Source: Sedimentisphaerales bacterium (GTDB lineage Bacteria > Planctomycetota > Phycisphaerae > Sedimentisphaerales > Anaerobacaceae). Taken from it: a stretch of 64,000 nucleotides of DNA. Location: NCBI GenBank assembly GCA_963708075.1, contig OY970194.1, positions 4,128,001-4,192,000 of the forward strand, written 5' to 3'. Positions 15,443 to 55,712 of the stretch are shown here, one piece after another. The position numbers and the translations under genes are program-made. The notes below the pieces were generated by a model, which saw only the letters and a program-made list of their open reading frames with translations, was not told where the DNA came from and made no database searches. The stretch's first letter is position 1. The number at the start of each line of letters is the position of its first letter.

Positions 15443-17308
15443 ATGGCGGACGAGTTGTCTCATACTCCAGAAGATGCCAATGAAGGCTCGCCGCCGCGAG
15501 CTGAAGGACCATCAAATCGAGCGCCAGGTGCCGAAGCGGGACTGGGTCGGTTCTTTACTCAGCTTTTGGCTATGCAATGCCACTGCTGCCGAGCCAAACA
15601 TGGTGCGGTGCTCCAGCTGGATGGCGATAAGACCTTCCGGACAGTGGCCTTGTTTCCGTCGGGGCAGATTGAGCAGGAACAACAGCAATGGCTGCAGCGT
15701 TCTGCGGCGGCAGCGAGCCAGGTATTCGCCGGCGGTGGAGCTGCGGTTGTGCCCGTGGACGGGGACTTGCGAACCCATGCGGTTATTGTGCCCCTTCGAA
15801 TTTCCGGCCACGACCGGCTGTTGGCGACGCTCCTGGTCAAGACGGCCGAAAAGACTGCCTTGGAAGGAGCCAGACAACTGCTCGAACTGACGACGCTTGT
15901 GGTCGGCATGACGTGCGAACACTTGTCCTCGCACGGCAAAGAGACCGCCCTGCAGAAGTTACACAAGGGATTGGAGGTCCTCGCAGGGACCAACCGCCAG
16001 AACCGCTTTCGGGCCGTGGCGATGGCCTTCTGTAATGAGATGGCCTCGCAGTGGCAGTGCGAGCGGGCCAGTCTTGGCTTTCTCAAGGGCCGCTATGTCC
16101 AGGTGAAGGCCATGAGCCATGCCGAGCACTTCAGCCGCAAGATGCGACTGGTGCAGGACATCGAAGCCACCATGGAGGAGTGCCTGGACCAGGATTGCGA
16201 GGTCATCTATCCCTCTTCGGCTGACGCGACTTACATTGCACGAGCGGCCGGTGAGTTGTCGGATCATCACGGCCCAAAGACCCTCATGAGCCTGCCATTA
16301 CGACAGGAGAGCCGGCCCATAGCCGTAGTCACTCTGGAGCGGATTGCCGGCCAGGCATTTACAGATGACGAAGCCGAGGCCATCCGGCTGGCGTGCGATC
16401 TGTGTGCCCCACGACTACTGAACCTGCAACACTACGATCGCTGGATCGGAGCCAGGATGGCCGCCAATGCTCGTCGCGGGTTAGCCGTCGTGCTGGGTGC
16501 CCAGTACACCTGGACCAAACTGGCGGTGATTGGCGGCTTCGTCCTTGTGCTGTTTTTGGTCTTCGCCAAGGGTTGGTACAAAGTCAAAGCTCCCTTTGTC
16601 TTTGAGGCGATCTCTCAGTACAAGATCGCTGCCCCATTCGATGGGTTTATCAAGAGCGTGGGTGTAGAGGTCGGCGACCGCATCGTGGAGGGCCAGACCG
16701 CTTTGGCGGAGTTGGATACAGCCGAGCTGCGACTACAGTTGGCTTCCGCCAAGGCCGAACAGGCCGGCTATCTCAAGCAGGCGGATGCCGCCATGCGAGA
16801 CGGCAAGACCGCCGAGGCCCAGATCGCCCAGGCGAGCGCCGATAGGGCTCAGGCTCAGATGGACCTGCTCAGTTATCACATCAGCCAGGCACGGATTCTG
16901 TCTCCCGTGACCGGCACGCTCGTGACCGGCGATCTCAAGCGCCAGATCGGTGCTCCCGTGGAGACAGGCAAGGTACTTTTTGAAGTTGCTCCCCTGGATT
17001 CTTTGCGAGCCGAACTGTATGTATCGGAGGATGAAGTGTCGGACGTGGCGGTAGGTCAACAGGGTTATCTGGCGACGGCCACCTATCCGGGGGACCGGAT
17101 CGGCTTTGCGGTGGAGCGAGTGAATCCGGCGGCGGAGGTAGTCAGCAATCGCAACGTCTTCAAGGTGTGGGTGAAGCTCTCGGAGAGCCGGCCCTGGATG
17201 CGGCCGGGCATGGAGGGTGTGGCGAAAGTCACGATCGAGAAACGCCCCTACGCATGGATCTGGACGAGGAAGGTTGTCAACTGGATACGGATGAAGCTGT
17301 GGCTTTAG
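15443..17308 (+). CDS. HlyD/MFP periplasmic adaptor with N-terminal GAF-like domains
   Basis: GAF-like region (CERASLG..MEECLDQ..SLPL..VVTLER), one TM, IAAPFDGFI..V..GD lipoyl half, coiled coil, ILSPVTG, MRPGMEG.AK. Confidence 0.88.
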   Translation: MADELSHTPEDANEGSPPRAEGPSNRAPGAEAGLGRFFTQLLAMQCHCCRAKHGAVLQLDGDKTFRTVALFPSGQIEQEQQQWLQRSAAAASQVFAGGGAAVVPVDGDLRTHAVIVPLRISGHDRLLATLLVKTAEKTALEGARQLLELTTLVVGMTCEHLSSHGKETALQKLHKGLEVLAGTNRQNRFRAVAMAFCNEMASQWQCERASLGFLKGRYVQVKAMSHAEHFSRKMRLVQDIEATMEECLDQDCEVIYPSSADATYIARAAGELSDHHGPKTLMSLPLRQESRPIAVVTLERIAGQAFTDDEAEAIRLACDLCAPRLLNLQHYDRWIGARMAANARRGLAVVLGAQYTWTKLAVIGGFVLVLFLVFAKGWYKVKAPFVFEAISQYKIAAPFDGFIKSVGVEVGDRIVEGQTALAELDTAELRLQLASAKAEQAGYLKQADAAMRDGKTAEAQIAQASADRAQAQMDLLSYHISQARILSPVTGTLVTGDLKRQIGAPVETGKVLFEVAPLDSLRAELYVSEDEVSDVAVGQQGYLATATYPGDRIGFAVERVNPAAEVVSNRNVFKVWVKLSESRPWMRPGMEGVAKVTIEKRPYAWIWTRKVVNWIRMKLWL

Positions 17309-17324
17309 GGGGGCAGCGGTTCCC

Positions 17325-19511
17325 ATGGCGGTAGATCGTCCGACATTCCATGAGTCCTGGTACCGCGTGGCGGATCTGCGGCCGAGGCTGCTATCAGGGG
17401 TAAACATCCGGCGGCAGTACTTCCGGGGGCAATTGTGGTATATCCTTGAAAACCCCGCCAATAGCGAATACGCCCGCATCGCAGAGAACGCCTACCGCTT
17501 CATCGGCGCCCTCGACGGCCGAAGGACGGTGGCCGAGCTCTGGCAATTGTGTAACCAGCAGCTCGGCGATGGCGCCCCAACCCAGGGGGAGGTCATCCAA
17601 CTGCTCGGCCAGCTCCACGGGATGAATCTTTTGTATGTGGATTTGCCCCCGGATGCCGAGGGGCTGCTCAACCGCTACAACCGCCGCATCCAGCGACAGG
17701 TCCTGAACTATCTGGCGAACCTGCTTTTCCTGCGGATTCCGCTGATCGACCCTGATGCATTCCTGGAGCGCTGGGTGGGTGTGCTTGGATCGGTCTTCAG
17801 TTGGACTGGCTTTTGCTTGTGGATGGTCTTGCTGGTCGCGGGATTGTATTTCGTCATCGGCAACTACAGCGAGCTGGTTGCCCAGAGTGCCGACGTACTG
17901 GCCCCGGGCAACCTGTTCCTGCTGTACCTGGCCTTCGTCGTCGTCAAGATCTTCCACGAGTTCAGCCACGCCTTCGCCTGCAAGAAGCTGGGGCGGCTCA
18001 ATCGCAGCAGCGGCGAAGTCCACAGCATGGGTGTGATGTTCCTGGTGCTGTTTCCCCTGCCATACGTGGACGCCTCCAGCGCTTGGGCCTTTCGCAACAA
18101 ATGGCACCGGGCGATTGTGGGCATGGCCGGAGTCATGGCGGAACTGGCCGCGGCGTCCGTCGCCGCCATCGTCTGGGCACAGACTTCCACGGGGACTATC
18201 CACATCATTGCCTACAACGTCATCTTCGTCGCCAGTGTTTCGACGATCTTGTTCAACGGCAACCCCCTGCTGAGGTTCGATGCCTACTATGTGCTTTGCG
18301 ATCTGCTGGAGATTCCCAACCTGGCCCAGCGGTCGAAGAACTACATCTATTACCTGGTCAAGCGATATGTCTGGGGCCTTAAGAAGCTCCGGAACCCCGC
18401 CTACGGCCCTGGAGAGACCTTCTGGTTCATCGCTTACGGTCCCGCGTCGACTGTCTATCGCATCTATATCAGCATACGAATCCTCCTATTCCTCAATCGG
18501 CGCCTTCCCGAGGAATTGTTCATTCTTGTTCCGTTGTTAGCGATAGCCGCCATCGTGGGCTGGCTGTTCGCACCGCTGGCGCGATTCATCAGGTACTTGG
18601 CGACAGGCCCTGAGCTTACCCGCAATCGCCGCCGGGCGGTCGTGTCCACTGTGGGCGGTCTGTGCGTGACAGTAGTCCTTATGGGCCTGATTCGCATGCC
18701 GGACCATTACCGTATCGAAGGGATCGTCGAGCCCGCTCATCTCGCCCTGATCCACGCAGAAAGTGACGGCTTTGTCACCGGTTTTCTCCCATCCGAGTCG
18801 GTTGCCTCGCCAGATGGCCAGTCCCTTGTACAGGCAGTCAATCGGGAGTTGGAGGCGGAGAAGGCGAGCCTGCTGGCGGAGCGACGTGGCCTGGAGGCGA
18901 GGCACCGTCTGGCTGAGACCCAGGAGACCGCCGCGGCACAGATCATCGCCGAGCAGATCGACGCTCTCAATGAAAGCCTTGCCCGCGTCCAGTGGCAACT
19001 GGATAACCTGAACTTGAAGCCGCCGTTCAAAGGCATCTGGGTGGCCCCGGAGATCGATCGCACCAAAGGCACATACCTGAAACGGGGTGAAAGAATCGGC
19101 TTCGTCGGCAGCCTGGAGGATCTGATCATTCGCGTGACCGCCGGGCAGGATGTCGCCGCTATGATCTTTGAGCAGGCACACAAGACCGTTGAGATTCGGG
19201 TCAAAGGCCGGCCGGACAGGACCTTCACAGGCCAGATCGAGAAGATCTTCCCCGCCGGCAGCGATGAGCTGCCCTCTGAGGCCTTGAGCTATGCCGCCGG
19301 TGGTGACGTGCCCACGCGTTCACCAACGCCACAGGATAGAACCGCGGCAGAGAAGTTCTTCGAGATTCGCATCAGGCCCGTGGCATCGGACGCTTCGGCC
19401 TTATTCACGGGCCAGCGGGTAGTAGCCAGGCTCACCATGACAAGCAAATCGCTTCTGGCCCAGTGGTGGCAGTCGGGCAGGCGGCTGTTCCAGAGGAGGT
19501 TCCACATCTAA
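17325..19511 (+). CDS. M50 (site-2) metallopeptidase-like membrane protein with PqqD-like N-terminus and HlyD-like C-terminus
   Basis: LDGRRTVAEL; HEFSH; YVDASSAW; NGNPLLRFDAYY; C-terminal coiled coil and barrel-sandwich. Confidence 0.88.
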   Translation: MAVDRPTFHESWYRVADLRPRLLSGVNIRRQYFRGQLWYILENPANSEYARIAENAYRFIGALDGRRTVAELWQLCNQQLGDGAPTQGEVIQLLGQLHGMNLLYVDLPPDAEGLLNRYNRRIQRQVLNYLANLLFLRIPLIDPDAFLERWVGVLGSVFSWTGFCLWMVLLVAGLYFVIGNYSELVAQSADVLAPGNLFLLYLAFVVVKIFHEFSHAFACKKLGRLNRSSGEVHSMGVMFLVLFPLPYVDASSAWAFRNKWHRAIVGMAGVMAELAAASVAAIVWAQTSTGTIHIIAYNVIFVASVSTILFNGNPLLRFDAYYVLCDLLEIPNLAQRSKNYIYYLVKRYVWGLKKLRNPAYGPGETFWFIAYGPASTVYRIYISIRILLFLNRRLPEELFILVPLLAIAAIVGWLFAPLARFIRYLATGPELTRNRRRAVVSTVGGLCVTVVLMGLIRMPDHYRIEGIVEPAHLALIHAESDGFVTGFLPSESVASPDGQSLVQAVNRELEAEKASLLAERRGLEARHRLAETQETAAAQIIAEQIDALNESLARVQWQLDNLNLKPPFKGIWVAPEIDRTKGTYLKRGERIGFVGSLEDLIIRVTAGQDVAAMIFEQAHKTVEIRVKGRPDRTFTGQIEKIFPAGSDELPSEALSYAAGGDVPTRSPTPQDRTAAEKFFEIRIRPVASDASALFTGQRVVARLTMTSKSLLAQWWQSGRRLFQRRFHI

Positions 19512-21497
19512 ATGGCGGCCCTCTCCCACGTAAGCTGGAAGACGCTCGATCAGGGCCTGCAGGCGAAACCCCTGCCCCAAGGCGCAGACGCCGCTTGGCA
19601 TGCAGGAGCGGGCATGCTAAGTCGATGCCTCCCACGACAGCGGTGGTTCCTTCGCCGGGCCCGGAAAATTGCGGAGCTGGATACGCAGTTCTCCGCCCTG
19701 ACGGACCACAAGCTGCGAGAAGAGGCCACCGGGCTTCGACAGGTGTTTCGGCTGGGCCGGGACAAGGCAGACGACTTGGATCGGGCATTTGCCATCGTGC
19801 GGGAGGTTGCCCTGCGGCAGATCGGTGAAAAGCCTTTCCCCGTCCAGATAGCAGGAGCTTTGGCTCTGGCCAAAGGCTGTGTCGTAGAGATGGCTACGGG
19901 CGAGGGCAAGACTTTAAGCGCTACACTGCCCGCGACGGTCGCTGGCTGGCGAGGCCAGGGCTGTCACATCATCACGGTCAACGACTACCTGGCCAAGCGG
20001 GATGCCGAATGGATGGGCCGCATTTATCAGTTTTGCGGGCTTCGGGCCACCTATATCGAGCAGGGCATGGCCCCGGAGGATCGCAGGAACGCCTACGCAG
20101 CGGATATCACCTACTGCACGAACAAGGAAGTGACGGCGGATTTCCTGCGGGATCGACTGCTTCTGGGCCGGTTGCGGGGGTCCAGTTCCGCCCTCTTATC
20201 CAAGATTGCCTCCGACGGCAGGTCCCCTCTGGATCGTCTGGTCCAAAGAGGGCTGCAGTGGGCAATTGTCGATGAAGCGGACTCCATCCTTGTCGATGAA
20301 GCCGTAACTCCTTTGATTATCTCCGGACCCGCTCCCAATCCCGAGCAGACGCAAGCCTTCTGCCAGGCGGTGAAGATTGCGGAAAGTCTCACCCCTCCAA
20401 GAGATTACTCGGTCAATCCTCGCTACCGGGAGGTGGAACTGACCGCCGAGGGACGCCGGCGTCTGGCAGATTTGGCGGCGCCTTTGCCAGGGATCTGGCA
20501 AGGCGCCCGCCGCCGCGAGGAGATCGTGACGAAGGCCCTCGTCGCCCAGCAGCTCTACCTCAAGGATAAGCACTACATCGTCAGCGATGGCAAAGTCGTC
20601 ATCGTGGATGATTTCACCGGCCGCATTATGCCGGACCGCTCCTGGCGGGATGGATTGCACCAGGCGATCGAGGCCAAAGAGGGGCTGGAGGTCACCGCCT
20701 GGAAGGATACCTACGCACGAATCAGCTTTCAGCGGTTCTTTCGATCGTACAAGCACCTGGCCGGCATGACAGGCACGGCCCAGGAGGCCGCCGGCGAGTT
20801 CTGGCAGATCTACAATCTGCCCGTAGTGACGATCCCGACGAATCGGCCGTGCATCCGGAGGGTACTGCCGGATATCGTTCTATCCGGCAAAGAGATCAAA
20901 TGGCAGCGGCTCGTACAGGAGATTCGTAAAGTTCACGATAACGGCAGGCCGATCCTCGTGGGAACACGAAGTGTTCGAGACAGTGAATACCTGAGCATCC
21001 TGCTAACAGCCGAGCATCTGGATCATCAGGTGCTTAATGCGGTCCGCCATCGTGAGGAGGCCCAGATCGTCGCTGAGGCGGGTCAACCCGGCAGGATTAC
21101 CGTGGCGACGAACATGGCCGGCCGAGGCACCGACATCAAACTCGGTCGGGGCGTGGCTGAACTTGGGGGTCTGCACGTGATTGCCGCTGAGCGAAATGAG
21201 TCCGGCCGGATCGACCGCCAGCTCTTCGGCCGGTGTGCCCGCCAGGGCGATCCGGGAAGTGCCCAGGCGATAGTGTCACTGGAGGATGAGTTCGTCTGCC
21301 GCTACGCAACACACCTTGCCGGCCACTTCAAACGCCGCCACGCTCAAGCCTCGGGAGACCTTTCTTCCATCCTCGCCAGGACAACATTTCATCTGGCCCA
21401 GTACCGCGCCGACAGATTCGCCCTGAGCCAGCGTAAGGCGGTCATGCGGGCCGATCACTGGCTCGATGAGACCATCGGCTTTGCCGGTAGGGCTTAG
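19512..21497 (+). CDS. Accessory, C-terminally shortened SecA-like ATPase
   Basis: EMATGEGKT, TVNDYLAKRD, IVDEADSILVDEA, GLHQAIEAKE, GMTGTA, IPTNRP, ATNMAGRGTDI, RIDRQLFGRCARQGDPG; only 661 aa. Confidence 0.93.
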   Translation: MAALSHVSWKTLDQGLQAKPLPQGADAAWHAGAGMLSRCLPRQRWFLRRARKIAELDTQFSALTDHKLREEATGLRQVFRLGRDKADDLDRAFAIVREVALRQIGEKPFPVQIAGALALAKGCVVEMATGEGKTLSATLPATVAGWRGQGCHIITVNDYLAKRDAEWMGRIYQFCGLRATYIEQGMAPEDRRNAYAADITYCTNKEVTADFLRDRLLLGRLRGSSSALLSKIASDGRSPLDRLVQRGLQWAIVDEADSILVDEAVTPLIISGPAPNPEQTQAFCQAVKIAESLTPPRDYSVNPRYREVELTAEGRRRLADLAAPLPGIWQGARRREEIVTKALVAQQLYLKDKHYIVSDGKVVIVDDFTGRIMPDRSWRDGLHQAIEAKEGLEVTAWKDTYARISFQRFFRSYKHLAGMTGTAQEAAGEFWQIYNLPVVTIPTNRPCIRRVLPDIVLSGKEIKWQRLVQEIRKVHDNGRPILVGTRSVRDSEYLSILLTAEHLDHQVLNAVRHREEAQIVAEAGQPGRITVATNMAGRGTDIKLGRGVAELGGLHVIAAERNESGRIDRQLFGRCARQGDPGSAQAIVSLEDEFVCRYATHLAGHFKRRHAQASGDLSSILARTTFHLAQYRADRFALSQRKAVMRADHWLDETIGFAGRA

Positions 21498-23341
21498 AAT
21501 GACGGGGACATCTCCCAGGGCGGCTCGGAGATCGTCCGCCGTTCAGAGCCCTCCTGAGGCGGCTCTGGATCAGGCAGGCTCTGCAGAACCGAAGACAATG
21601 ATGCTTCCACCATGCGCAGGTCAAGGATCGTTCCGGCCGCCTGGGCAAGCTCGGCCAAGGCGATATTGAGTTCCACGATCGCACCGATCTCGCCCCGCTG
21701 AGCCTGGGCATAGGTCTCCTGGGCCTGTAATTTCACCAGCAAAAACTCCGGCGTGAGCTTTTCTCGAATGGCCTCCGATTCCTCCAGCGTCTGCAGGTGT
21801 GCCCGGGCCGCCTGCACGGCCTCCTGCTGTACCTTGAGCTCATCGAAGCTCGTCTGGACTCTCCTGGCTCTCTCGCGCACCTGCACCGCTACCTGGTCAG
21901 CCGTATTATGCAGAATCGAAGTGGCCTTTCGCCGCTCCCACTGCCGGCGGAGCCATTCGGCCTGTCGGCTGCGATTACCCAGCGGATACTCCAGGTTCAG
22001 CCCAACCGCGTAGCTTGTATATTGGCCATCCTCGATCTGATCGTGTGCTTCGAACCTGTCCTCGCCCAAACCTCGAGCCCTCGCTGAGCCCACCAGGTCC
22101 AGCCGGGGCATGCGTTGATTCTTCGCTACATCGATGTTGATCTGGGCGACCTGAACGCCAAGGTGGGCCTGCTGAATCACGGGATTTCGCTGCATCGCCG
22201 TCGCCAGCGTGCGATCCACCAAGGTTGCAGACTCCGGCAACTCCTGCGCGACCTGCGGCTCACTCGCTGGTATGATCTCGAGCTTGCTGGCCGTATTGAC
22301 CTGTGGATCAGAGATCAATCGCACAAGAGCATCCTGCACGTCCACCGCCTGCTTTTGCGACTCCAACAGCGTCGCCTCGCGGCTCTTGGCGTAGGCCTCA
22401 GCCTGCTTGATCTGGACATCCGTAGCATCGATGTCCCGCCGACCCTCTACCTTCTTGAGCGTCTGATTCGTCTCGTCCACAAGCTGACGCTGGATCTCGG
22501 CATCCTGCCGGGCCTGGACCAATCGCCAATAGGCCGTAATCACAGCCGCCGAGACAGCTTCCGCTTTCTCACGAAAACCAAGGAGCGATGCCTCATAGTT
22601 GAGCTTGGCCACATTCACGCCGGCCAGATTCACCTGCGTGCCGGCATCACGGAGCAAAGGCTGGCGAAGCTCAAAGATGACCATCGGCTCATAGCGAGTC
22701 GGTAACGTTCGCCCAACCAGATCATCCCAGATATGGCTTAGACCGTAGCTGGCTGACCACTCAGAGCCCAGGATGGTCCTTTGCTTTACCCCGGACTCGA
22801 ACAATCGTGTCTCTGCCTCTCCGGGCTCAAAGAAGCTGTTGCGAGGATTGTCCTGATCGTCATAGTTCACGCGGCTAAACGCCGTCGGGTCAAAATCCCC
22901 CGCCGCCTTGGCGACCTCTTGCCGCACGATCTCCGGATCGAAGCTGACGATTCGAATCTCAGGGCTATTGGCCAAAGCGCGCGTGATGGCCTGCTCGATC
23001 GTCAGCGTCGCGGTCTTCTCGCCGTTATTCGGGTCCTCAATTATCTGCAAGGGCGGGATGGCTTCTTGCTCAGTCTCGACCGGCTTGAGCATGCTCAACG
23101 GATCAAGCGATGGCGGTTCCTGTGCGTTGAGGCGCTGCTGTGGCCCACTGCCGGCTAACCGCTTCTGGTATGTGCTCACTTTCGATCCATCGCTGACTCG
23201 ATCGGAAACGCAGCCGCCAAATACGACCAGACAACCGATCAGGATAGGTGAGTATGCCCCCCAACCACTCACGTGCGACAGGCTGAGCCATCCTGTCCTT
23301 CGGCGGGACTGTCTTGGTGTCCTCTGTCTCAACTGCATCAC
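21494..23341 (-). CDS. TolC-family outer membrane protein, probable lipoprotein
   Basis: Lipobox-like VVFGGC; LTIEQAI..AL.NSPEI; LRQPLLR; MPRLDL; two helical repeats; converges on the SecA-like gene with a 4-nt overlap. Confidence 0.88.
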   Translation of the reverse strand: MMQLRQRTPRQSRRRTGWLSLSHVSGWGAYSPILIGCLVVFGGCVSDRVSDGSKVSTYQKRLAGSGPQQRLNAQEPPSLDPLSMLKPVETEQEAIPPLQIIEDPNNGEKTATLTIEQAITRALANSPEIRIVSFDPEIVRQEVAKAAGDFDPTAFSRVNYDDQDNPRNSFFEPGEAETRLFESGVKQRTILGSEWSASYGLSHIWDDLVGRTLPTRYEPMVIFELRQPLLRDAGTQVNLAGVNVAKLNYEASLLGFREKAEAVSAAVITAYWRLVQARQDAEIQRQLVDETNQTLKKVEGRRDIDATDVQIKQAEAYAKSREATLLESQKQAVDVQDALVRLISDPQVNTASKLEIIPASEPQVAQELPESATLVDRTLATAMQRNPVIQQAHLGVQVAQINIDVAKNQRMPRLDLVGSARARGLGEDRFEAHDQIEDGQYTSYAVGLNLEYPLGNRSRQAEWLRRQWERRKATSILHNTADQVAVQVRERARRVQTSFDELKVQQEAVQAARAHLQTLEESEAIREKLTPEFLLVKLQAQETYAQAQRGEIGAIVELNIALAELAQAAGTILDLRMVEASLSSVLQSLPDPEPPQEGSERRTISEPPWEMSPSF

Positions 23342-24192
23342 GGCTGTCGCCCCGCCTGTGGCTGTCCATCCCCTGCGAATGTCACCAGCACGTGCTCTCC
23401 CGCCGGTCTGCCCATTGGGTTCGGCACTTCGATGCGCACCCGCAGTGTGCCACTGGCGGCATCGGCCACTGCCGCAACAAAGATCACACGCCCCTCGGCA
23501 GCCGACGTCGCCTTGCCCGAGTCGGTGAACTGTACCCGAGTCGTCCCGCCCGTCTTTAAGTTGATCCCCTCAGCCAGTGGGACAGGGGCGTCGATCCACA
23601 ACGGGTCAGTCTGCACGACCCGAATCACATCCGCCAAGGCGTTCGCCGACTCGCCCACTTCGACATCGACCTTTTCGATCCACCCATCGACAGGGCTTTT
23701 GAGCTGCATGTTGTCAACGCGGATTCTGTACTCCTCGTACTTGCGGCCCGCCTGCTCATGCTCGAATTTGGCCAATTCAAAGGATAACTGCGCAATGGTC
23801 ACATCCAGCTTGGCGTGCTCGACCTCAAGGAATGTGGCGGCATTGCTGGCAGCGGCCTTCTGGAGCTTCTCCAGATCGACTTTCTTTTGCGCCAGCGATG
23901 CTTCGCTCGCCCGCATCTGCGTGAGGTCCTCGCTCTGGGCCTTGAGCTGGGCAAGCTGAACCTGCTCGGCGGCATCATCCTGCCGGACCAGCACCTCACC
24001 GACCTTTACCGAATGCCCCTCCTTGAACGGCACGCTCGCAATCCGCCCCGGCTGCACGAAGGAAAGGGTAATATCCGCGCTCGGCCGCGTGATAGCTCGA
24101 ACGCCTGTGCCCATTCCGGCGGATGTCACGCCGCAAAGCAATATCACTATGAACGACAACGAAAACAGCTTATGTATTCCATTCGTGACCAT
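23338..24192 (-). CDS. Efflux RND/MFP periplasmic adaptor subunit
   Basis: LSFVQPGRI...KEG..VK.GEVL; coiled coil; LKSPVDG; ADAASGTLRVRIEVPNP; overlaps the TolC start; start may be 24216. Confidence 0.88.
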   Translation of the reverse strand: MVTNGIHKLFSLSFIVILLCGVTSAGMGTGVRAITRPSADITLSFVQPGRIASVPFKEGHSVKVGEVLVRQDDAAEQVQLAQLKAQSEDLTQMRASEASLAQKKVDLEKLQKAAASNAATFLEVEHAKLDVTIAQLSFELAKFEHEQAGRKYEEYRIRVDNMQLKSPVDGWIEKVDVEVGESANALADVIRVVQTDPLWIDAPVPLAEGINLKTGGTTRVQFTDSGKATSAAEGRVIFVAAVADAASGTLRVRIEVPNPMGRPAGEHVLVTFAGDGQPQAGRQP

Positions 24193-24229
24193 CAGCCAAG
24201 CCTCTATGCCATACATCCAACAATTCGTT

Positions 24230-24258
24230 ACTGTACATCACGACAGGAGATACTGCAA
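24230..24258 (-). promoter_or_regulatory. Putative promoter for the MFP-TolC operon
   Basis: Minus strand TTGCAG-N17-TACAGT. Confidence 0.4.
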
Positions 24259-24275
24259 GTGAGTTCGCACAAGAA

Positions 24276-24298
24276 GTAGTGTAATGAGTTGTGTGTAA
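24276..24298 (-). mobile_element. Isolated IS256-like terminal inverted repeat
   Basis: Minus strand TTACACACAACTCATTACACTAC resembles IS256-family ends (from memory). Confidence 0.45.
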
Positions 24299-24590: not shown

Positions 24591-25210
24591 GTAGGGTGCA
24601 AATATTATCTGATTACGCCGGAGACGATCCTATCCTGGTATCGGCAACTCATCGCCGAGAAATATGATGGCAGCAAGAACTGTAAGAACCCCGGCCCGCC
24701 TAAGATCTCGCAGGAAATCATCGGCCTTGTGATCCAATTCAAAGAGGAGAACCCGCGCTGGGGCTACACCCGAATTCGGGATTACCTCGTCTACCTCGGA
24801 CACAAGATCGGCGAAACCACGGTTAAGAACATCCTCATCGAGAACGGCTTAGATCCAGAGCCAGACCTGACCCGCAAGACCACCTGGAAGGAGTTCCTCA
24901 AGAGCCACTGGAATGTGCTGGCCGCCTGCGATCTGTTCTCGATTGAGCTACTGGTCAAAGGTAAACTTGTCCGCTACATGGTGCTCTTTGCCATCAATCT
25001 GGCCACTCGCAAAGTGGAGATCCTGGGCGTCGGTGCGCAACCGAATGGTCCCTGGATGGAGCAAATCGCCCGCAATGCCAGCGGCGAACACGGCTTCCTG
25101 GCCGGCAAGAAGTACCTGATCCATGATCGGGATCCACTGTACACAGACAAGTTCGACAGCATCCTCAAAGCTGCCGGGGTGGAAGCTGTGAAACTACCAC
25201 CGCAAAGCCG
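24590..25210 (+). pseudogene. Integrase-core (rve) transposase fragment, truncated at both ends
   Basis: WYRQLIAEKYDGS..ENPRWGYTRI..WKEFLKSHW..ACDLF..YLIHDRDPLYT..KLPPQS then stops; paralogue of 49791-50887. Confidence 0.85.
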
Positions 25211-25463
25211 CGTGACAGGCACCCTGCCACGTCATCTTCGCGGGGACAGTATGCGCCCGGGTATGATCTGGGCATCAGGAAACTCCTTCTATGCGATGCT
25301 CAATGCTGGATGATCTACGATTCCGTCCGCCCTACCGACTCATCTTTCCTGGCGATTTCAGTGCTAACAGTCTGAAATCGCTAGCGTTATGCTTGGATGA
25401 GTATTTGCACCATACGGGTTCTCCGCAACGCTATCGTTCGAAGGGGCAATATCGATCGGCAAT

Positions 25464-28400
25464 CTATTCCACGATCCCGGGAGCACCGACGTAACGCAGG
25501 TGAATCAGGCCGGCGTCGAGTATCGCGCCGATCGTGCCGTGATAGCGGAACGTAATCCAAGAGACGCCGTCGGCCGTCGCACGGAGAAGAGCCGTGGTGG
25601 GAACGGACCAATTGAATTCGAGGCGGTTCATGAAGGTGCCGGTTCCGCCCGGCGCCTTCAGCGTGATCCTGACGCCCGTCACATCGCTGGCGAGGTCGTT
25701 TAGGGCGTCCAGGATGGAGGCGTCGCTCGCGGTGAGCGCGACATCGCCACCGCGCGATTGGACCAGGCCGACAAGCAGGTCCCCGGTGGTTTCGGTGAGA
25801 ACGACCCAATTGTCGACATTGACGTCGATATGGCCGCCAGTGCCCAGGAGGTCCGTTCGGGAACGCACCGCAATCGTTGACGGCGTCAGCCCGGCTACCC
25901 CGCCAACCTTCGCGCCGTCCACGTCCTCAATGATGATATTGCCGCCCGCAATCAGGCCGGCCACAGTCCGATTGTCGGTCGGCAGATTGAGATTGCCGCC
26001 GGTCTCCAGATCGAGGTCGCTGGTCTCCAGATTGAGGTTGCGGAAGTCATAGATGCAGTTGACAGGCGTGACGGTCGCCCCGCCGGTCGCCCCGCCGTTG
26101 GAATCGGGACGGAAGAAGTTGCTAAAGATCCAGTCGCGGGTTCCATCCGCAGGCGGGGAACTTGGATAATCAAAATTGGCGCCCTCGTTCAACGTGGTGA
26201 CGCGAACACCCGCCCCCGCCCCAGCCTCAGGATCCTTCTCGGCGTCCTGAAGGAGCAGGTCAATGGTTCCGCCTGCCGTCAGCGAATCGATGGTCGCAGT
26301 GAACTCGGTCACCGCCGAGTCATCGCGCAGAACCGCTTTCAAGTCGAGGTAAATGTCTCCGCCCGCGACACCCACGACATGCTGAGCGGCCGTCAACTGA
26401 TGCACGGGAGCAACGTCCGAAGCGGACGGGTCCAAGGTGATGACATCACCGCCCGGTGTGGCGAGCTGAAGGGTGGTGCCGTCGGCGGACAGGATCACCG
26501 TGTAGTAGTGCCCGTTCTCCAGCCCTTCGATTGGTGTCCCGGGGGTCCCGTTGGCGTTGACGGCCTGGTACTGCACGAGCTGCCCGTTGAAGAATGGGAC
26601 ATAACCCAGGAACAGCACATTGGCTGCGCCACAAACCCCGTTGGCGAGGAAGGTCGTGGTCGCCCCGGGGTAAGTCAGGTCGACATTGACCCGCGGCGCA
26701 CTGCTACCGATCCCGCCTGCCGGGGCCCGAATGTCGAGGATGGCCGTGCGGATGAGAGAGGTGCGGCCGTTACCGTTCGGTGCATCGGCATCCTCTGCCA
26801 CGTCACGTCCGCGCGCCGCGGTGATGTTGCCGCCGCTGTTGTGGATGACGGTGCGGCCGATGGGGTTATTGATCGTGCCGTTCAGGATGATATTTGAGTT
26901 GGTCTCATTGATGATCTGCACCAGCGCCGGCCCCCCCGTGCGGCTGAGCGCGAATGTCAGCGTGACGTATCTGCTGTTCAGGTCCACCAGCGGATTCTCC
27001 GTGGTATTGACCACGTTGATGTTGTTGATCTTGAGCGGCATGCTCGAGTAGTTCGTGATCAGCACCCGGCCGAGCGTGCCACTGAGGTCCCATGTGCTCC
27101 CCTCGCCGCTGATCCCTACCGCGTCTCCGTCGACCCAGGCGTCATTGAAATAAACCTGGCCGCTGCCGCCGTTTCCGATGTCATTGACGAAGATCTCGGG
27201 CTCGGAAACGATCTGGCCCGATGTCTGGGATGCGTTTTCGCTGGTCCACACGCTGACGTTGGTGGCCTTCGTAATCCACCCGTACTCGTCGATCACCAGC
27301 TCCGCGCTCTGGCCCGAAGAGATGTGCACATCGGCGTTCCAGACGATTCTACGGTCCTGGTTGTCGTTCAGCTCGGTGTCTGCATGACCAGCCGCTATCG
27401 CCTTCTTCTTCACCTTGGCATCGGCAGCGATTTTCACGTTGTAGTTCGTCGTATTGACGTACAGCGCCAGTTGATCCAGGGTATTGGGGTCGGTGGCGTC
27501 GCCGACCACGTTATCTGCCAGATGGTCGCGCAAGATCGCCACCGGGTTCCATAAACCAGGGTCGCTGTAATTCTGCAGACTCAGGTCAAATTTCTGATTT
27601 TCGGCTGCAACCAGGTCGCTATCGGTCTGTAAGACGCCGATGTACTCGTAAACGTTGCCGCTGGAGACGCGCACCGTCATTCCCGGAGCAAGCGCGTTGA
27701 CCATGGTTCCGGCCCCCTCAGAATCCTCGGAGGTCGTAACTTCGACTTGTTTCCACTGGTCTGCATCCTCGTAGGCCTGGAGACTGAGGTCAAATTTCTG
27801 ACTGCCGTCTATATCCGGGTCGCTATCGGTCTGTAAGACGCCGATGTATTCGTACACGTTGCCGGCAAGACCACCGCTGGCGATGGCTACCATCATGCCC
27901 GGAGTAAGCGCGTTGACCTCGTCGAGGATAGTTCCGTCGCTCACGCGCGGACCGGCGGTCACCTGGGCACGTGGGGCCCCCGTAGCTGCATCGGGGCCGT
28001 CGGCCACTACGCTGGAAGTCAATGTCGTAGTGTTGTTTCCGTCGGAGTCGACCCAGCCGAATAAGCCCATGACGCGACCGTAGGAGTAGGCGTAGGTATC
28101 GACGTTATTGAACGTGGCCTCGAGGTCGACACCGCGATAGCCCGTAAGGCTTGACCCGCTGCCCAGCAAAACCTTGTTCTCGGCGTCGATGTCCATATCG
28201 GTAAAATCATCCGATACGCCGACAAAGCCGGCGCCGTATCCCTCGGCGTCGGCATGGACATCCATGTTGCTGGTTGTCGCGCGCAGGGCCACGGTGCTCG
28301 CGATTACGACTGCGCTTCCTCGAGTGTCACCAGGCTCTGGCTGCCGTCAAGGATGTCCATATCGGTTTCGGCATAGCCGCCGCCGCCGAAACCGCGTCCA

Positions 28401-31400
28401 TCGGCATAGGAATGAGTCAGGGCGTCGACATTGGCGTCGGAAGTGATTCCGACATGGCCTGCGGCCGCGATCTTGGCTCCGCCTTCCAGGTACGCCTGGG
28501 TGTCGTAGGACAGTACAGACGTCATGTAGGCTCTCACGTCGGCCGCGGCGCCGCCCGCTTTAGCCGTGGCGGTGCCGCTGGTAACATGGTTCGACCAGGC
28601 ATCGACCGTCACGTCGCCGCCGCTGATGATGTTGGCGCCGGCCGCAATGTAAGCGTAGGTGGTGCTCGTTTGATCGGTGGTGGCCCAGGACTTGCCGATG
28701 CCGACAAAACCGCCCGTGGAGTTGGTGGTGTTGGCGCGGGCATTGGTCTCCGATGCGGCCAGAACCGAGATATCCCCGGTGACTCTCAGCGACCCTGACG
28801 CAATGTACGCGGTGACCGTGACATCGGCGTTTGAATTGGATTCGTTTTTCGACTGGCCATAAACGCCGCCGGCGGAGCCCTTGCTGTCCGCGCTGGACAC
28901 GGTATCGCCCGGAGGCGCGACCAGTTCGGCGAGATCCACTCCGCCCAGGCCTGTGATCCAGTGACGCGTCGTGCCGTCAGGCAAGGTGCCGCCGGGCAAG
29001 GTGGTGGTCGTACCGTCAGGCAGGGTGATGGTAGTGAGGTTAATGCGGAACTGATGGGTTGTGCCGGACTCTGCTGTCCCAAGGTCGACGCTTTGTGTTC
29101 CAACCCAGTGCGTGGTGGATGCATTCAGCCCCGTCGTGCCCAGGGTGATCGCGGCGCCTCCTGGGGTGCTGGCAAGCTGGTAACTGCTCTTGGTCGCATT
29201 AATAATGTAGTAGGTCTGGCCACTTACCAGGCCGTGAATCGGCGCGTTGCGTGCGAGCACCACGCTGTGCACGGAGCCATCGGCCTTGTTCGGCCCCAAC
29301 TCGATCGGCGTCTTGCCATCGACAGTCTTGCCGCTGATGGTCGCCGCCGTACCGAAGTTGCCGGTGATATAGAGGGTGCCATCGACGATGCTGTCGATCA
29401 CGTAGTCTCCGTTATTGTTGCCCGCGCCGCCGATCCTGATGCTTTGGCCCGGAGCGAAGCCGTAGGCGCTCCAGGGCTGGCCGCTCATGTACGCCTTGTT
29501 GCCGTTCGCCTGCGGAACAAACGTGATTACTCCCGTAACGGTTGGCGCCAGTTTGATCGTATGCTCGGTCTTGTTTATGACGCGGTAGACGCAGTCGTTG
29601 TTCAGTCCGCCGATCGCCGTGGGTTCGCCGATCATTGAGCTCACGTGATAGACAACATAATCCCCATTGGTGAAATGATGATCGATCCCAACCAGACTAC
29701 TATTGCCGTTGGAATCGATCACCTCTTCGAAGAAGACGATGTTGTTGGCGCCCGGATTGTCGGTGACCTCCGGCTTATCACCCAACGTGACGTCGGCATC
29801 GACCTGGGAGCTGGCGAAGGTGAGCGTCTTTGGCGCTATGTAGGTCACCGCCTGCCCGTTGACGAAGTTGTTGGGGTCGATGATCGTCTTACCGTCGGGT
29901 TGCACGTTGCTCACGATGAAGCTGTTGAGAGATGCCCCCGGCGCCACCAACTGGATACTGTTCGCATCGATCACGCGCACCGTATACACGCCGCCATCCG
30001 TCAATCCGCCAATAAGCTTGCCCAGATCAGACGCATGATAGACCACCTGGTCGCCATTCAGGAAGTTGTGGGGCGTGGCAAAGGTGATGGTCTCGTTGTC
30101 CGGGTTGACGACGCCGAAATCAATGGCGTCAGGGTCGGCGGTGAACCCGGCGCCGAGCGCGATGGTGTCGTCGTCGACGTAGATCACGCTGTACTGGCGT
30201 GCGCTGGTCTCGCCTTCAGCATCCGTATAGGTCTGGTCCAGGCCGCCGATTTCAATGAAGTCAGTCTTGTATTCGATCACGTCGCCTGTTTGCAGATTGT
30301 GGTTCGATACGGTCAGAGTGTCTTCGATATCCCCGACAGCCTCAATGTGGTAGTCAGGCTGGCCGGGCTGCATCGCCGGCTTGGCGATCGCACTGACGTT
30401 CACCGAGCCGGCCTTGATCAGCGAGCCACTGCCGATGTAGGCGGTCACATCGGGCGTCACATTGACCGTGGCCTTCGACCCGCCGACGCCACCAGCACCT
30501 TTGGCTACGCCCTTGGTGGAAGCGTCGGCCTCGGGGTTCTCCTTCGCTTCGACGGTGATGTTGCCGGACACGTAGATCCTGCTGTTGTCGCCGATGTGGG
30601 CGTCGAGGGCTGGGCTGACGGTCGACGTTGACTCGTTGTCACTGGGGCTCCCCTCGGCGGCAAATCCTTTTGACACCGCCTGAGATGTGGCCTTGGCTTT
30701 ATCGACGCCGAGCGCCCTGACCTTCAGGCTGACGGCGCCCGGCCCAGTCTCGGAGCCGATAGTGCCGTCCATGCGTGCCTTCACAATGGGACTGCCGATC
30801 GCAGTGGCATGGCTCTCGCCGAGTCCAACGAAGCCGCCGTTCTGGCCGGCCGCGGTAGCCTCGGGAGTAGTCGCCGAGCTCGAAATCACCGCGATGGCGT
30901 CCCCGGCGCTGAGTGTCGCATCGCTATCGACCCAACTCTCGAGGTACGGAGTCTCCGTGGCTATGGCAGTCGCACCGCCTTTAGCGAGGAAGCTGCCTGA
31001 CCTCGAATAGGCGATAGCTTCTGCACCCGAGCCTAACAACACTGCATAGCTGTCTTCCGCGCTCAGGTCCTGGTTGTATATGGACTTGAGGTTGATGTCG
31101 CCGTTTGTCGAAACGATGTTGCCACCGCTGATCGAGCTCGACACCATGCTGGCAGGTGTTGCCGCGTTGGGAGCGATCGTCGCCGTTGCCACGGGCGCAC
31201 ATCGGGCCTCGCCGATGGAGAAAGAAACGGAATTTCCATCCGCCAGGGCTGCCGCACTGGCAGCCAGCGTCGAGCCGACCGAAATGGTGCCGTCAGCCTT
31301 GGCCTGCCGAGCATCCGCATAACCACCCAGCCGGCTTTCGACTGTCGGCGTCACGTTGGCGATCGCTGCCGTTATGACGTCGGAGGTCGCGGTGAAGGCG

Positions 31401-34400: not shown

Positions 34401-37400
34401 CGTCCGGGTCCAGGCTGACCAGCCGCCATTGGGAGTTGTCCCCGTAGTTGAGGCGGGTCAGCCAGTTGTTGTTCTCGTTTGCATTACCTTGGCCATTGCC
34501 GGAGCCGACGGCGGTCGGCCGAAACAGGGTTTGTGTCCCGATGTACTCGTAGACGTTGCCTGCGTTGGCGCCGGCGGTGATTTTGACCGTATTGCCCGTC
34601 TCAATCCAAGCGGGATTGCTGCCGGTGGCGTAGTCGGCCGCGTAGAGGTAATTCGGGTTCCAGCCGATATAGTTGCGGGCGACGGCTACGCCGAGCGAGG
34701 CGCCGATCCCGGCAATGCCTCCTACGGCAATGGCGGCAGAGGCGCTCACGACCACCGCACGGATGCTGGCGGTGTTGCCGGCGTCAAGGTCCACCGTGCC
34801 GGCACTGCTGACCGCGCTGCCCTGGATATAGGCATTGGTGCCGGTGAGGATGATGTTGTTCGCGTCGGCTCCCGCGCCGCTGATGGCGACGCCCGCCACA
34901 CCCGCGAAGCCGGCGGCCAGCGAGGCGGCGGTGGAGATCGCATTGATGGCGGCACTCTCAGTGGCACGGATCGTGATGCCGTCCGATCCGGTGGCGTCGA
35001 TGCCGAAGTCGGTCAGAGTGTCAAGATCGTCTTCATCCGCCGCCAGACCGTCGGCATTGAGGATGTAGGCCTCGACGTCACCGGTGATAGTATTGCGCGC
35101 CAGGGAAACGCCGATCGAGAAAGAGACGCCTACTGTGCCGCCGACCGACGCGGCGAGCGAAGCTGCGCCGGCGAGTGCCTTGATCGTCGAGGTGTCATCC
35201 GCGGTCAGTGTTACGCTGTCGGCCACGATGCCGCCGTCCCCGTCGCCGTCGATGTAGGACTTGACGTCGACGCCGATCTTGTTCTCGGCCCAGACGCCCG
35301 AGCCACTGGCGGCGACGCCGACCGTTCCACCCAGAGCCACCGCCGCAGATCCGGCAAACACGACGGAGTCGATCGTCTGGCTCGCCAGAGAACTGAGCGT
35401 GAGGTTGTCAGCGGCTACTACACTGGTGTCGGCGAGGAAGGCCTGGACATTGCCGGCGACATTCACCCGTTTCCACAACGTGGTGTTGCGGTATGGCTGC
35501 AGGCTGAGGTCGAACGGCTGATTGCCGGCTGTAATCGGATCGCTATCGCTGTTTGACGGGCCGACGTATTCATAGATGTCGCCCGCCAGCGCGCCGCTCG
35601 AGATGCGCACCGTCATCCCCGGAGTCAAGGCGTCAATGTTAGTTCTACTTGTCGTGCCGCTCGACTCATAGTCGACCTCGACGTCAGCGCCGTTGGGATC
35701 CCAGCCGATGAAGTTGCGGGCGATGGAGACGCCGATCGAGACGCCCACGCCTGCTGCCCCGCCGCCCCCGATGGCCAGCGAGGCCGCCACCACCGCGGAC
35801 GAGATTGTCGATGTGCTCGCGGCGTTGATCGTCACATCGTCGTAGCTGTCGAGCACGCTGTCCTGGGAGTAGGCATTGGTTTTGGTCAGGATGACGTTTT
35901 GCGCCACGGCGCCCGCGCCACTGACGGCGACCCCGCCGGAACCGCCGATGCCGATCGCCAGCGAAGCGGCCACGGACACGGCGCTGATCGTCGTATGCGA
36001 CACGCTGATCTTGTTGGTCCCATTCTTGGTAATCAGTTCGAGCACATAGGTCTGGCCGTCGGGCGCCAGCAGCATCCAACTTTTGCCTTCAACCAGGATC
36101 GACAGCTTGAGCTCGTCGACGAGCTGCCACTCGTCGGCGTTCGTATAGTCTTCCTCGCTAAGGTCGATGTCGTTCGGAGTCTGGTACGTCTCCGAGCCGT
36201 AAGTCCCGTAGGTGCCGGAATTCTCGGGCGCCTTCACGATGTAGCGGTAGACACGGCCCCCTAAGCCGCCGGCGTAGTCTTTCGCCAACAGGACCGTGTC
36301 GCCCTCGCGCACATCCTGCTCGTCGTCACTGGACCGGTATTTCGCCGCCGTGGCGACGGTGCCATACAGCGCCAGCGTTTCGCCAAATGCCGTGCGCAGG
36401 GCTTCCAGGATCGCGCGATCGTCGTCGGCATCCTGCACTGCCTCATTGACCGCGTCGTCGAAACGACTGGTGACGCTGTCAGTCTCACTGGCCGGGTCAT
36501 CCGGATTGTCCGTGTCCGCCGTGGCGGCGTCGTCGAGGTTGGCCGCCGTAATCAGGCTAGTCAAGTCCAGATCGAACAGGTGCCGGCCCTGGCTCACCGC
36601 TGAGATCGTGATGCTGCCGCCGGAGGTGGTGACGCCTCCGTCGGCGTTGCTGATGTAGGCCTCCACGTCGTTGCGGACTTCGTTGATGGCTATCGAAAGC
36701 CCAATCGATACCGCTCCCCCGCCCGTGCCGCCGACCGAGGCGGCCAGCGAAGCTGCGCCGGCGACGGCGTTGATACCCGACGCGTCGCTGGCGGCGATGT
36801 GCACGCTGGCGGCGGAGATGCCGTCGGTAGCGGTAGTCGCGCCGTCGCCATCGATATAGGCCTGGACGACGCTGTTGATGCGGTTCTCGGAATAGACCCC
36901 GGCGCCACTGGCCGCGATGCCGGTGGTACCGCCGCCGGAAAGCGCGGCGGCGCCCGATCCCACCTTTGCCGTGATGCTTTGATTAGATTGTGCATCCAGC
37001 GTCAACACATCCAAGGCCTGTACGCTGGTGTTTTCAAGGTAGGCCCGCACTTCGTTGGGGTGGCTGTCATCAACATTGACCTGCTTCCAGAGCGAGCGGT
37101 CGGAATAGTCCAGGGTGCGCAAGTCGATGCTGATCAGTTGCCATCTGTCGGTATCGGTGTAGTCCTCCGCCGAAAGATCGACATTGCTGTCGTCATCGCC
37201 AACATACTGGTAGGTCGCCCCCAGCGTGCCCCCGGGTCCGTCGTAATCATCAGCCACGCGGATGCGACTTACGTTCTTCGTCAGTGTCACGCCGGTTTCG
37301 GAGGAATCGCCGGTTTCGAGCGGCTGAGTCAGGGTTGGGCCGAGGTACTCGTAGACATCACCCGCGCGTGCGCCGTCGGAGATCTTTACCGTCGTTCCCA

Positions 37401-46400: not shown

Positions 46401-47400
46401 GAGCAGAGGTGTCCAGGCCCGTGGGCCCGGTGCCGGTTACAGTGGCGCCGTCAATAAGAATAGGCTCAAGACCGGTGAAGGAAATCGAGCTGACGCCGGC
46501 TTGAATCGTACCGTCGCCAAAGACTTGACCGGGGGTATAGGTCCCGGCAACCATTCCAAGGATGACCAGTGTGTCGTATCCGCCCGCTCCGCCGTGGAAT
46601 GTCACAGGCAGTGGCAGATCACCGCGGCTCAAATCCACGACGAGCGTATCATCCGTTTCATCCGTCCCCTGGATGATCAGACCGCAGACTCCGCTCTCGG
46701 CCAGCAGTTGAGGCTGGAAATCCCACACATTAATCATCCCTGAAGCGGTCACGGTCAGGTAATTTGCATCCTGCGGGGGAGGGTTCGGAACGTGCAACGT
46801 GTCAATAAGTTGCTCGGTAGAGGACGGCAAGTCCTCGTATGTCACAGGCGACTGCGGATCGCAGACGCCGTCATCGACACCATTACTGATGGGCTCGCCC
46901 TCGTACGCAACGTCGCAATACGATGCCGCAAGCGAGCCACTGTACTGAGACGAGGTCACGCCGGACAGGTCCGTACTCAGCAGTTGGTCTGTTTCAATCC
47001 CGGATTCAGCCGGTTGGCTGTCAACAATCGTCGAGTCGCTGCCTCCGTTATCGGCCTGCGTCTCATCAGTAGCATTTTGTGTAAGGAACAGTTGAAGACT
47101 GTCGAGCTGGGCGTCAGTCGCACAGTCACTTGTGTCGGTGCTGACCTCTATGGCGGCTACGGGGATAACACTGGCAGTGGGATTGACATCGATGCGAATT
47201 GGATCGACCTCTTCGCTGCCGAACACGGCGGAAAGCAGGAGTCTCGGCTCGAGAGACTCTACGACACAGCCCGCCTGGCGGCCGTCTGTTGTCGCCAGTG
47301 AGCTCTTGCCTGCCCACCACTTCGCCAACCGTCCTATCACCACTACTCCCCTCACACGCACCACGCCGGTACGTGGAGATACCCACCTTCGCCGCGCCAC
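25464..47400 (-). CDS. Giant (~7,300 aa) LEPRxLL-motif repetitive surface protein/adhesin, split by two single-base frameshifts (~34247, ~28315)
   Basis: GAAGGAG RBS + GTG; VESLEPRLLLS; RTX-like GGxGxD repeats; Ala/Gly/Ser-rich repeats; adding 1 nt at each site joins ORFs 34150-47400, 28304-34429 and 25464-28292 with continuous repeat pattern. Confidence 0.85.
39830..42060 (-). repeat. Eight intragenic ~70-90 aa repeats DTITRxxGSWxxDGFxxGQ..NDGTYTI
   Basis: Counted in the translation; a further copy near 44090-44260 and a degenerate one near 29380-29490. Confidence 0.9.

Positions 47401-55639: not shown

Positions 55640-55712
<73 letters not shown>

Follow-up and report, generated by a model that had tools for sequence, protein, structure and literature searches.

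Type I secretion systems (T1SS) are exemplified by HlyB-HlyD-TolC and, for giant adhesins, by LapEBC/LapA and SiiCDF/SiiE, and their signals share no sequence consensus; accessory Sec pathways occur in SecA2-only and SecA2-SecY2 versions, and peptidase-containing ATP-binding cassette (ABC) transporters couple leader cleavage to export. Here we describe a locus in a 64,000-nt stretch of the genome of a Sedimentisphaerales bacterium of the Planctomycetota (contig OY970194.1, positions 4,128,001 to 4,192,000 of the forward strand; the whole stretch is termed the window), in which five genes, including those of a short SecA paralogue, an M50 site-2 protease and a TolC-family channel, stand beside a giant gene whose product starts with an ExLExRxLL leader. 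The closest described counterpart of the five genes is the SecA_DEAD / Peptidase_M50-HlyD / GAF-HlyD / HlyD / OEP locus of Kamneva, Poudel & Ward 2015 (PMC4452313), who noted the lack of an ABC transporter and of SecA_SW, and proposed that SecA serves as the ATPase and the M50 protein as the pore. The clusters of its S2 Table consist of M50, HlyD, GAF, SapC and a small hypothetical protein, and Methylobacterium extorquens AM1 and Ruegeria pomeroyi are among the organisms that it lists; the available parts of that paper name no cargo, signal or RiPP recognition element (RRE), and its survey was anchored on SecA, so that SecA-less versions were not its subject. A LEPR-type motif was proposed as a novel export signal in 2004 by Studholme, as cited in PMC8567305, where 8 of the 10 longest proteins of Tuwongella are recorded as carrying it. 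The family models Planc_extracel (PF07595) and LEPR-XLL (NF012209) describe the same motif as the leader examined here and, as far as their available descriptions go, assign no machine to it. In Chlorobium, LEPRxLL giants are made and exported; the available text of the preprint states that they 'lack known signals' and assigns them to SapC/TolC/HlyD (bioRxiv 10.64898/2026.03.19.712371). Chlorobium chlorochromatii appears, in the parts of the 2015 supplement available, as a second entry in the S4 SecA tree, with Magnetococcus and verrucomicrobial entries as neighbours, and again in S9-S11, the trees of three partner families (PMC4452313); the available preprint text does not link the LEPRxLL giants to this second SecA or to the partner families. 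In Omnitrophota giants, as far as that preprint is available, wing-less SecA domains lie inside the protein, which is a different arrangement (10.1101/2023.11.21.568195). Two orphans may belong together, namely the 2004 export-signal motif, which many of the longest bacterial proteins carry, and the 2015 TolC-linked gene set that came without a cargo; a literature search, with most subscription journals outside its reach, found no paper joining the leader motif to this gene set.

The five genes were found to form two convergent operons, and their arrangement agrees with the description in an earlier note made from the sequence alone. The forward operon encodes (i) a GAF-HlyD membrane fusion protein (MFP) (15443-17308; 621 aa) with one predicted transmembrane helix (360-378) and a periplasmic adaptor C-terminus; (ii) a 728-aa protein (17325-19511) that combines an RRE/PqqD-like domain (~18-105), an M50 site-2 protease (HEFSH 211, D319) and a HlyD/MexA-type adaptor (~459-706); and (iii) the short SecA paralogue (19512-21497; 661 aa). 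The reverse operon encodes a stand-alone MFP (23338-24216; 292 aa), which has a hydrophobic segment at its N-terminus, and the TolC-family outer-membrane channel (21494-23341; 615 aa), a possible lipoprotein judging from the residues ...GGC near position 44. Gaps of 16 and 0 nt and overlaps of 4 and 4 nt separate the genes of this block, and scans of the locus for promoters and terminators returned matches at chance level only. A domain scan of 28 window ORFs (open reading frames) detected no ABC, RND or SecY match, as the earlier note had it for the locus, and no C39 peptidase fused to an ABC exporter. The genome, a single contig of 7.5 Mb that is 92.8% complete, holds one canonical SecA, one copy of the exporter gene set and one long leader-tagged gene, which adjoins that set. 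Its single SecY match lies 2.9 Mb from the locus, with no second SecY in the locus or in the 92.8%-complete genome. Like the 2015 locus, the window has a short SecA_DEAD protein without SecA_SW, adjacent M50-HlyD, GAF-HlyD and HlyD genes, and no ABC transporter; what is added to the 2015 hypothesis is the link to a cargo and its signal, the RRE, and SecA-less versions of the locus, SecA being dispensable outside the window clade.

We consider it reasonably probable that these five genes specify a dedicated ABC-free exporter that would recognise the ExLExRxLL leader of the giant protein and pass the giant through a conduit of three adaptors and TolC to the cell surface. The likeness to T1SS lies in the outer half, with an MFP and TolC conduit and a giant, acidic, Gly/Ala/Thr/Ser-rich cargo that has no Sec signal. 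Unlike T1SS, the system has no ABC transporter, which is where it fails T1SS membership, and it has three different adaptors, one of them fused to a membrane protease, and a proposed signal that is N-terminal. An ordinary type I system with its ABC transporter encoded elsewhere, and with SecA and M50 as accessories, would account for the MFP and TolC as standard T1SS parts and for the few RTX-like repeats in the cargo, and the Chlorobium giants were assigned to SapC/TolC/HlyD in the available text of that preprint (bioRxiv 10.64898/2026.03.19.712371). However, only two ABC_membrane matches were found genome-wide, both distant from the locus and neither near an adaptor-like gene; the ABC ATPases near the homologous loci that were scanned are ABC-F, LolCDE-type or unassigned, with no ABC exporter among them; and the RTX-like repeats are N-terminal here. 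We regard this explanation as highly improbable. The observation that the earlier note had named as refuting its proposal, an ABC transporter consistently linked to homologous loci, was not made in the loci scanned.

The proposed export signal is the motif ESLEPRLLLS, encoded at 47230-47259 on the reverse strand, close to the start of the giant gene. The N-terminus of the giant reads ...VESLEPRLLLSA; as a 54-aa N-terminus it scores 21.6 bits against NF012209 (cut-off 17), the whole giant ORF scoring 15.9 bits. Against PF07595 the window leader reaches 11.8 bits for a gathering cut-off of 25.5, and PF07595 matches 21 of 26 aligned leaders at E<=1. By a hydropathy scan (SignalP was not run) nothing hydrophobic precedes residue 1258 of the giant, which agrees with the earlier note that a classical signal peptide is lacking. 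In the window genus (L289, L290, L306, L315 and, in the window, 47340-47310) a Trp/basic segment such as LAKWWAG, GIWRWLKR or GFWSWIRG lies 15-25 residues ahead of the motif, where it is possibly a membrane-targeting helix.

The distribution of the leader was compared with that of the M50-HlyD gene, which is present in 76 of 301 genomes of the phylum. Raw PF07595 matches, which occurred in 222 of the 301 genomes, consisted largely of antisense noise, and 40 of them were read before any use was made of the counts. Among 20 top matches from M50-positive genomes (G068, G157 and G272 were skipped), 15 proved to be N-terminal ExLExRxLL leaders, one was a decayed leader and four were noise; none of 20 high-ranking matches from 19 M50-negative genomes, picked mostly for long frames, was a leader. 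When 25 M50-negative genomes were searched with a profile, no full-length M50-HlyD protein came to light. Within the window genus, M50 was present in 8 of 18 genomes and short SecA in the same 8, true leaders were detected in 9 of 18 (7 of the 8 M50-positive genomes plus G305 and G312), and 8 of 18 had neither system nor leader; in G305 the leader is accompanied by a cognate MFP, located where a contig ends. A tagged ORF lies beside 11 of 42 genome loci and 12 of 80 metagenome loci; in the SecA-less genomes G109 (a 7,079-aa frame), G142 and G233 tagged genes lie 6-25 kb from M50. Plasmid loci, of which 6 of 24 records were examined, carry tagged ORFs in four cases, and a fifth stands next to an 8,800-aa gene, seen without its start. 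A Pontibrevibacter plasmid carries a LEPR-XLL giant, DUF3467, GAF-MFP, M50, SecA and MFP; a Methylosinus plasmid repeats this gene order, with TolC added, behind the 8,800-aa gene; in Thalassospira, Azospirillum and Eleftheria plasmids, tagged genes of 3,500-4,000 aa accompany adaptors, M50 and TolC, and no SecA lies at the locus (of these strains only plasmid sequence was searched); and the Rhizobium locus is cut off by the start of its record. Overall, the leader tracks the M50 gene and the SecA-like gene is not universal. The earlier note is supported in that the five genes form a conserved unit without a linked ABC exporter and that the leader-tagged giant is the likely cargo.

Site-2 proteases are typical signalling components, as are GAF domains, and both occur in this module. 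Its locus is mobile and has a patchy distribution (8 of 18 genomes in the genus), as would be expected of a unit for regulated intramembrane proteolysis with GAF sensing, or for small-molecule efflux, that merely shares islands with adhesin genes. The leader, however, tracks the system even when unlinked, and in several alpha- and betaproteobacterial plasmid loci the tagged giants are co-oriented with the exporter genes; such a signalling or efflux module therefore appears very unlikely to us.

The protein that we place at the centre of the proposed exporter is the 728-aa M50 protein, which is predicted to be a fusion of RRE, site-2 protease and adaptor. Its structure was modelled from a 44-row alignment (pLDDT 88.6). 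In the model the N-terminal domain has a winged-helix fold of three strands and three helices, and residues 18-105 superpose on the lasso-peptide RRE-leader complexes 6JX3 (Z 9.7, root-mean-square deviation [rmsd] 2.8, 83 aligned) and 5V1U (Z 9.6, rmsd 2.9, 81 aligned) and on PqqD 5SXY (Z 8.6, rmsd 2.7, 88 aligned). Residues 192-330 match RseP 7W6Z (Z 9.4, rmsd 3.2, 131 aligned; RseP and SpoIVFB together Z 9.1-9.4), and residues 459-706 match MexA (Z 14.0, rmsd 4.2, 217 aligned); Foldseek with the full model gave only adaptor matches among those listed. The Z values for RRE and protease are moderate, but they agree with (i) sequence-level matches to PqqD 3G2B (E 0.0027) and the MJ0392 site-2 protease (E 0.0023); (ii) Atlas matches of the N-terminal domain to PqqD clusters (0.95); and (iii) the top NCBIfam match, the daptide RRE-site-2 protease NF041824 (E 2e-43; 149 bits, under its 300-bit cut-off). 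A scan found six hydrophobic segments, and a further long helix in the model (362-393) would place the adaptor in the periplasm. The protease motifs, an HExxH and an NxxPxxxxDG-type third ligand in membrane helices, are HEFSH at residue 211 and NGNPLLRFD at 311, and the zinc-site residues H211, E212, H215 and D319 were found to be invariant in 44 of 44 sequences at identities down to 19%, which argues that catalysis has been retained; the residue after D319 gives DA in the window and DG in most homologues. The M50 protein is a plausible leader peptidase, consistent with the processing that the earlier note had suggested. A complex prediction of M50 residues 1-350 plus Zn with the 54-aa leader gave 0.30, 0.31 and 0.31, short of the 0.32 mark (controls at 0.00-0.01), and was used neither for nor against binding. 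The daptide protease MpaP is said, in the available text of a preprint, to remove a leader with an ELExMEAP motif (bioRxiv 10.1101/2023.03.08.531785). As in MpaP (NF041824), an RRE here precedes an intramembrane HExxH protease, and both leaders carry a short acidic-Leu motif, ELExMEAP there and ExLExRxLL here. Unlike the present protein, MpaP and the lasso B1 RREs (6JX3, 5V1U) serve short RiPP precursors, with ABC transporters in their clusters; here a periplasmic adaptor is part of the same polypeptide as the protease, and putative substrates range from 400 to >10,000 aa. A coupling of leader cleavage to export would also recall the peptidase-containing ABC transporters, except that no C39-ABC fusion accompanies it here.

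The short SecA has SecA_DEAD, PP_bind and P-loop matches, and its Walker A, DEAD, PPXD clamp and motif VI are intact. Aligned with canonical SecA (858 aa), it covers residues 16-612 and ends within the scaffold helix; the wing domain and the two-helix finger are missing, and its model ends in a single helix (620-656). Walker A (S for T in one row), DExD and motif VI are kept in 20 of 20 aligned short SecAs, all of which end 60-110 residues past motif VI. The closest SecA-like matches of the window protein are from Phycisphaerae. Because it has no wing domain or two-helix finger, the short SecA cannot push a substrate in the textbook way. Like SecA2 systems, the locus would provide a second SecA for special substrates; unlike SecA2-SecY2, it has no SecY2 or Asp genes, its SecA is shortened to ~660 aa, and it is linked to an MFP and TolC. 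With no wing or finger and no SecY2, the system fails Sec membership. A two-step route can be drawn nonetheless, in which the short SecA, like a SecA2-only targeting factor, feeds the cell's housekeeping SecYEG, the M50 protein serves as a dedicated signal peptidase, and the chain leaves the periplasm via adaptors and TolC. This route fits (i) the canonical SecA and single SecY in the genome; (ii) the position of the short-SecA clade next to actinobacterial SecA2 in the available trees of PMC4452313; (iii) the signal of Chlorobium giants in the periplasmic fraction, as given in the available preprint text (bioRxiv 10.64898/2026.03.19.712371); and (iv) the SecA-less loci, which could borrow the canonical SecA. 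It is countered by the missing wing domain and two-helix finger, by a leader without a hydrophobic h-region and by the fusion of an adaptor to the inner-membrane protease, as expected of a continuous conduit, and we judge it unlikely.

The phyletic pattern suggests that SecA marks a subtype. Called by score, frame length or adjacency, a short SecA was present at E<=1e-205 in 44 of the 76 M50-positive genomes, and a relaxed search added five more, of which one is degenerate and another contains internal stops. At the strict threshold M50-negative genomes yielded no clear short SecA (G089 was ambiguous; 10 of 225 were re-searched loosely). In a tree of 49 M50 domains built by a quick method, the window falls in a 21-row clade (SH-aLRT 98), 20 of whose 21 rows have an adjacent SecA, and SecA-less loci fall mainly into two other clades. 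Among the 80 closest of 551 metagenome loci, SecA was found at 48 of the 51 that have >=1 kb downstream. A contig scan with a single SecA query returned mostly canonical SecA, with the gene set at 7 of 80 loci. Since no clear short SecA was found in 27 of the 76 M50-positive genomes, it is not the defining motor; the RRE-M50-adaptor protein is likely the core of the system, with SecA as the motor of a subtype rather than a defining part. The earlier note's idea that a SecA-like motor drives the substrate through an M50/HlyD inner-membrane complex is upheld as regards a conserved ABC-free unit; the idea itself had been printed in 2015 (PMC4452313), and its SecA component is not universal. Apparent M50-SecA fusions (P0121, P0122 and P0123) were rejected as Rosetta-stone evidence, each being a singleton: two bacterial ones have lost the last 65-85 M50 residues at junctions that look out of frame, and the third is a eukaryotic gene call spanning the whole operon. 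Three further features of related loci were observed. At L123:11130-13106 (G158) a strongly diverged short SecA (profile 163 bits versus >800 for alignment members) still stands behind M50 and may be an intermediate in SecA loss. A SecA-less clade (L142, L144, L145, L146, L284, L286) has variant leaders (MEERIVLD, LEPRFMFDA, LEARLMFDA), after most of which a DUF4347 comes next, and its second adaptor is shorter. In relatives, a small DUF3467 gene frequently lies directly upstream of GAF-HlyD (L207, L208, L211, L212, L215-L218, L281, L282, L285) and not at L001; Pfam, phmmer and a custom profile did not detect it in the window genome, and its product is possibly an optional chaperone.

In the ABC-free export that we favour, the cytoplasmic RRE of the M50 protein would bind the leader, and the HExxH...D zinc site would cut at the motif or immediately behind it, the point at which conservation ends. 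The membrane helices of the M50 protein, together with GAF-HlyD and the free MFP, may form the inner-membrane entry and a periplasmic tunnel that docks on TolC. In the subtype of the window, the short SecA would clamp the unfolded chain and use ATP to feed or ratchet it N-terminus first; SecA-less relatives would use another drive, such as folding outside the cell. A broader proposal, to which we give slightly less than an even chance, is that this is a separate, as yet unnumbered Gram-negative secretion system with an N-terminal signal of its own, in which an RRE-site-2-protease-adaptor protein reads and removes the leader and is itself the inner-membrane translocon, exporting proteins that reach 10,000 residues or more N-terminus first via TolC with neither ABC nor SecY, with a finger-less SecA driving one large subfamily, and that it is the route for both the 2004 planctomycete signal and the Chlorobium giants. 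If so, a 10-residue tag would predict what a widespread system secretes (76 of 301 phylum genomes sampled, and proteobacterial plasmids as well), a site-2 protease would act in protein translocation, and a SecA would work without SecY or a two-helix finger; the SecA-less subfamilies would offer a natural comparison for the contribution of the motor.

Several points weigh against such an exporter. No site-2 protease is known to conduct proteins, and we infer export, leader binding and cleavage from gene content, motifs, co-distribution and the lack of a linked ABC transporter, together with predicted RRE, protease and adaptor folds. The leader calls were made by eye, and related genomes are not independent samples. 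G312 has a leader and no system that could be found, nor any SecA match; G309 has the system and no leader found; and in G042 and G274 neither short SecA nor leader was found beside M50. No tagged ORF was present in the fetched DNA, with flanks that were often short, at 31 of 42 genome and 68 of 80 metagenome loci. The 27 M50-positive genomes without a clear short SecA, five of them single-contig genomes, showed only canonical SecA or fragments (3 ambiguous). The Chlorobium giants, in the available preprint text, gave a periplasmic-fraction signal with no major processing seen, which fits the two-step route equally (bioRxiv 10.64898/2026.03.19.712371). Furthermore, the giant gene of the window is frameshifted in the present sequence.

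This gene, on the reverse strand, comprises three ORFs over 21,877 nt and ~7,290 codons: a first piece of ~4,400 aa (ORF 47400-34150; likely start GTG 47340 after GAGGGAG), a middle piece of ~2,040 aa (28304-34429) and a last piece of 942 aa (25464-28292) without a family match. The ~7,300-aa substrate of the earlier note is correct in its total, but it is split by two frameshifts, near 34245 and 28305, rather than being one ORF. The product is likely a filamentous beta-repeat adhesin: it carries at least 35 LktA_tand_53 repeat stretches, with such filament repeats in both the first and the middle piece. Its three RTX-like nonapeptides are all N-terminal (~490-620), with none in the last 3,000 aa and so none in the last piece; RTX position was dropped as a sign of export direction, being inconsistent across giants. 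An adhesin-like cargo, GAF domains on one adaptor and an invariant protease site recall LapA/LapG. By this analogy another motor would thread the giant through the adaptor-TolC conduit, the leader would tether it at the inner membrane, and an M50 cut, possibly GAF-gated, would only release it. Since no other inner-membrane transporter is linked, the M50 complex would still be needed as the entry point, and the C-terminus of the cargo lacks the RTX nonapeptides typical of C-terminus-first export; retention and release of this kind is in our estimate quite unlikely. As to the frame breaks, contigs of a related strain (run X4, ~94-95% alike) span both, with 1352 letters over 1351 window bases (one gap) and 3760 over 3765 (seven gaps); by length alone, the positions of the indels not being listed, both differences are, in size, compatible with an open frame. 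A sample of 31 other loci of this assembly (~40 kb aligned) contained 2 with apparent frameshifts, and one more that had been flagged turned out to be tandem paralogues; at this rate one or two breaks are expected in 22 kb. The frameshifts are probably assembly errors rather than a recent genuine inactivation of the gene. An enolase-like region (60265-63032, reverse strand) and an ABC exporter gene at G000:C1:154224-156001 in the same genome also look frameshift-split, consistent with assembly indels.

An insertion sequence (IS) remnant with an integrase-core transposase (24600-25313, forward strand), resembling an rve_3 ORF at 49791-50534, lies between the giant gene and the MFP gene. Beyond GAF-HlyD, and pointing away from it, is a second leader-tagged gene (14682-15287, reverse strand; SVESLESRLLD...), which is truncated and matches residues 197-373 of the giant at 67% identity; locus L001 has an intact tagged gene in the corresponding place. 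The block is flanked by att-like direct repeats of 27-29 bp, a 29-bp exact copy of part of tRNA-Phe at 14543-14571 on the left and a 27-bp exact copy at 49336-49363 on the right, with tRNA-Phe itself at 55639-55712 on the reverse strand. The flanking repeats are as expected of the att-bounded island that the earlier note had proposed, but no site-specific integrase was found among the 28 ORFs scanned, only IS-type rve_3 (smaller ORFs were not all scanned). The att-like copies belong to a tandem set of six on the same strand within 96 kb (window 10639, 14543, 49336 and 55655; G000:C1:4087589 and 4090394), and sequence beside some of them is itself repeated, with 10636-11048 resembling 49333-49805; this array suggests repeated integration of related elements. 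Inside the block, a forward gene at 48155-48931 encodes a 258-aa protein without Pfam or NCBIfam match that ends in VPLPAG, a hydrophobic stretch and a basic tail, resembling a sorting signal of the PEP-CTERM/VPLPA type. The segment next to the tRNA, of lower GC (~54%), carries a 1,180-aa HD-CE plus HSP90-like ATPase gene (51561-55103, reverse strand), which we take to be a defence-island gene. On the other side of the block, a reverse-strand gene at 11308-14346 stands alone between two att copies and encodes a LamG/F5-8 protein of 1,012 aa that appears to have a classical signal peptide.

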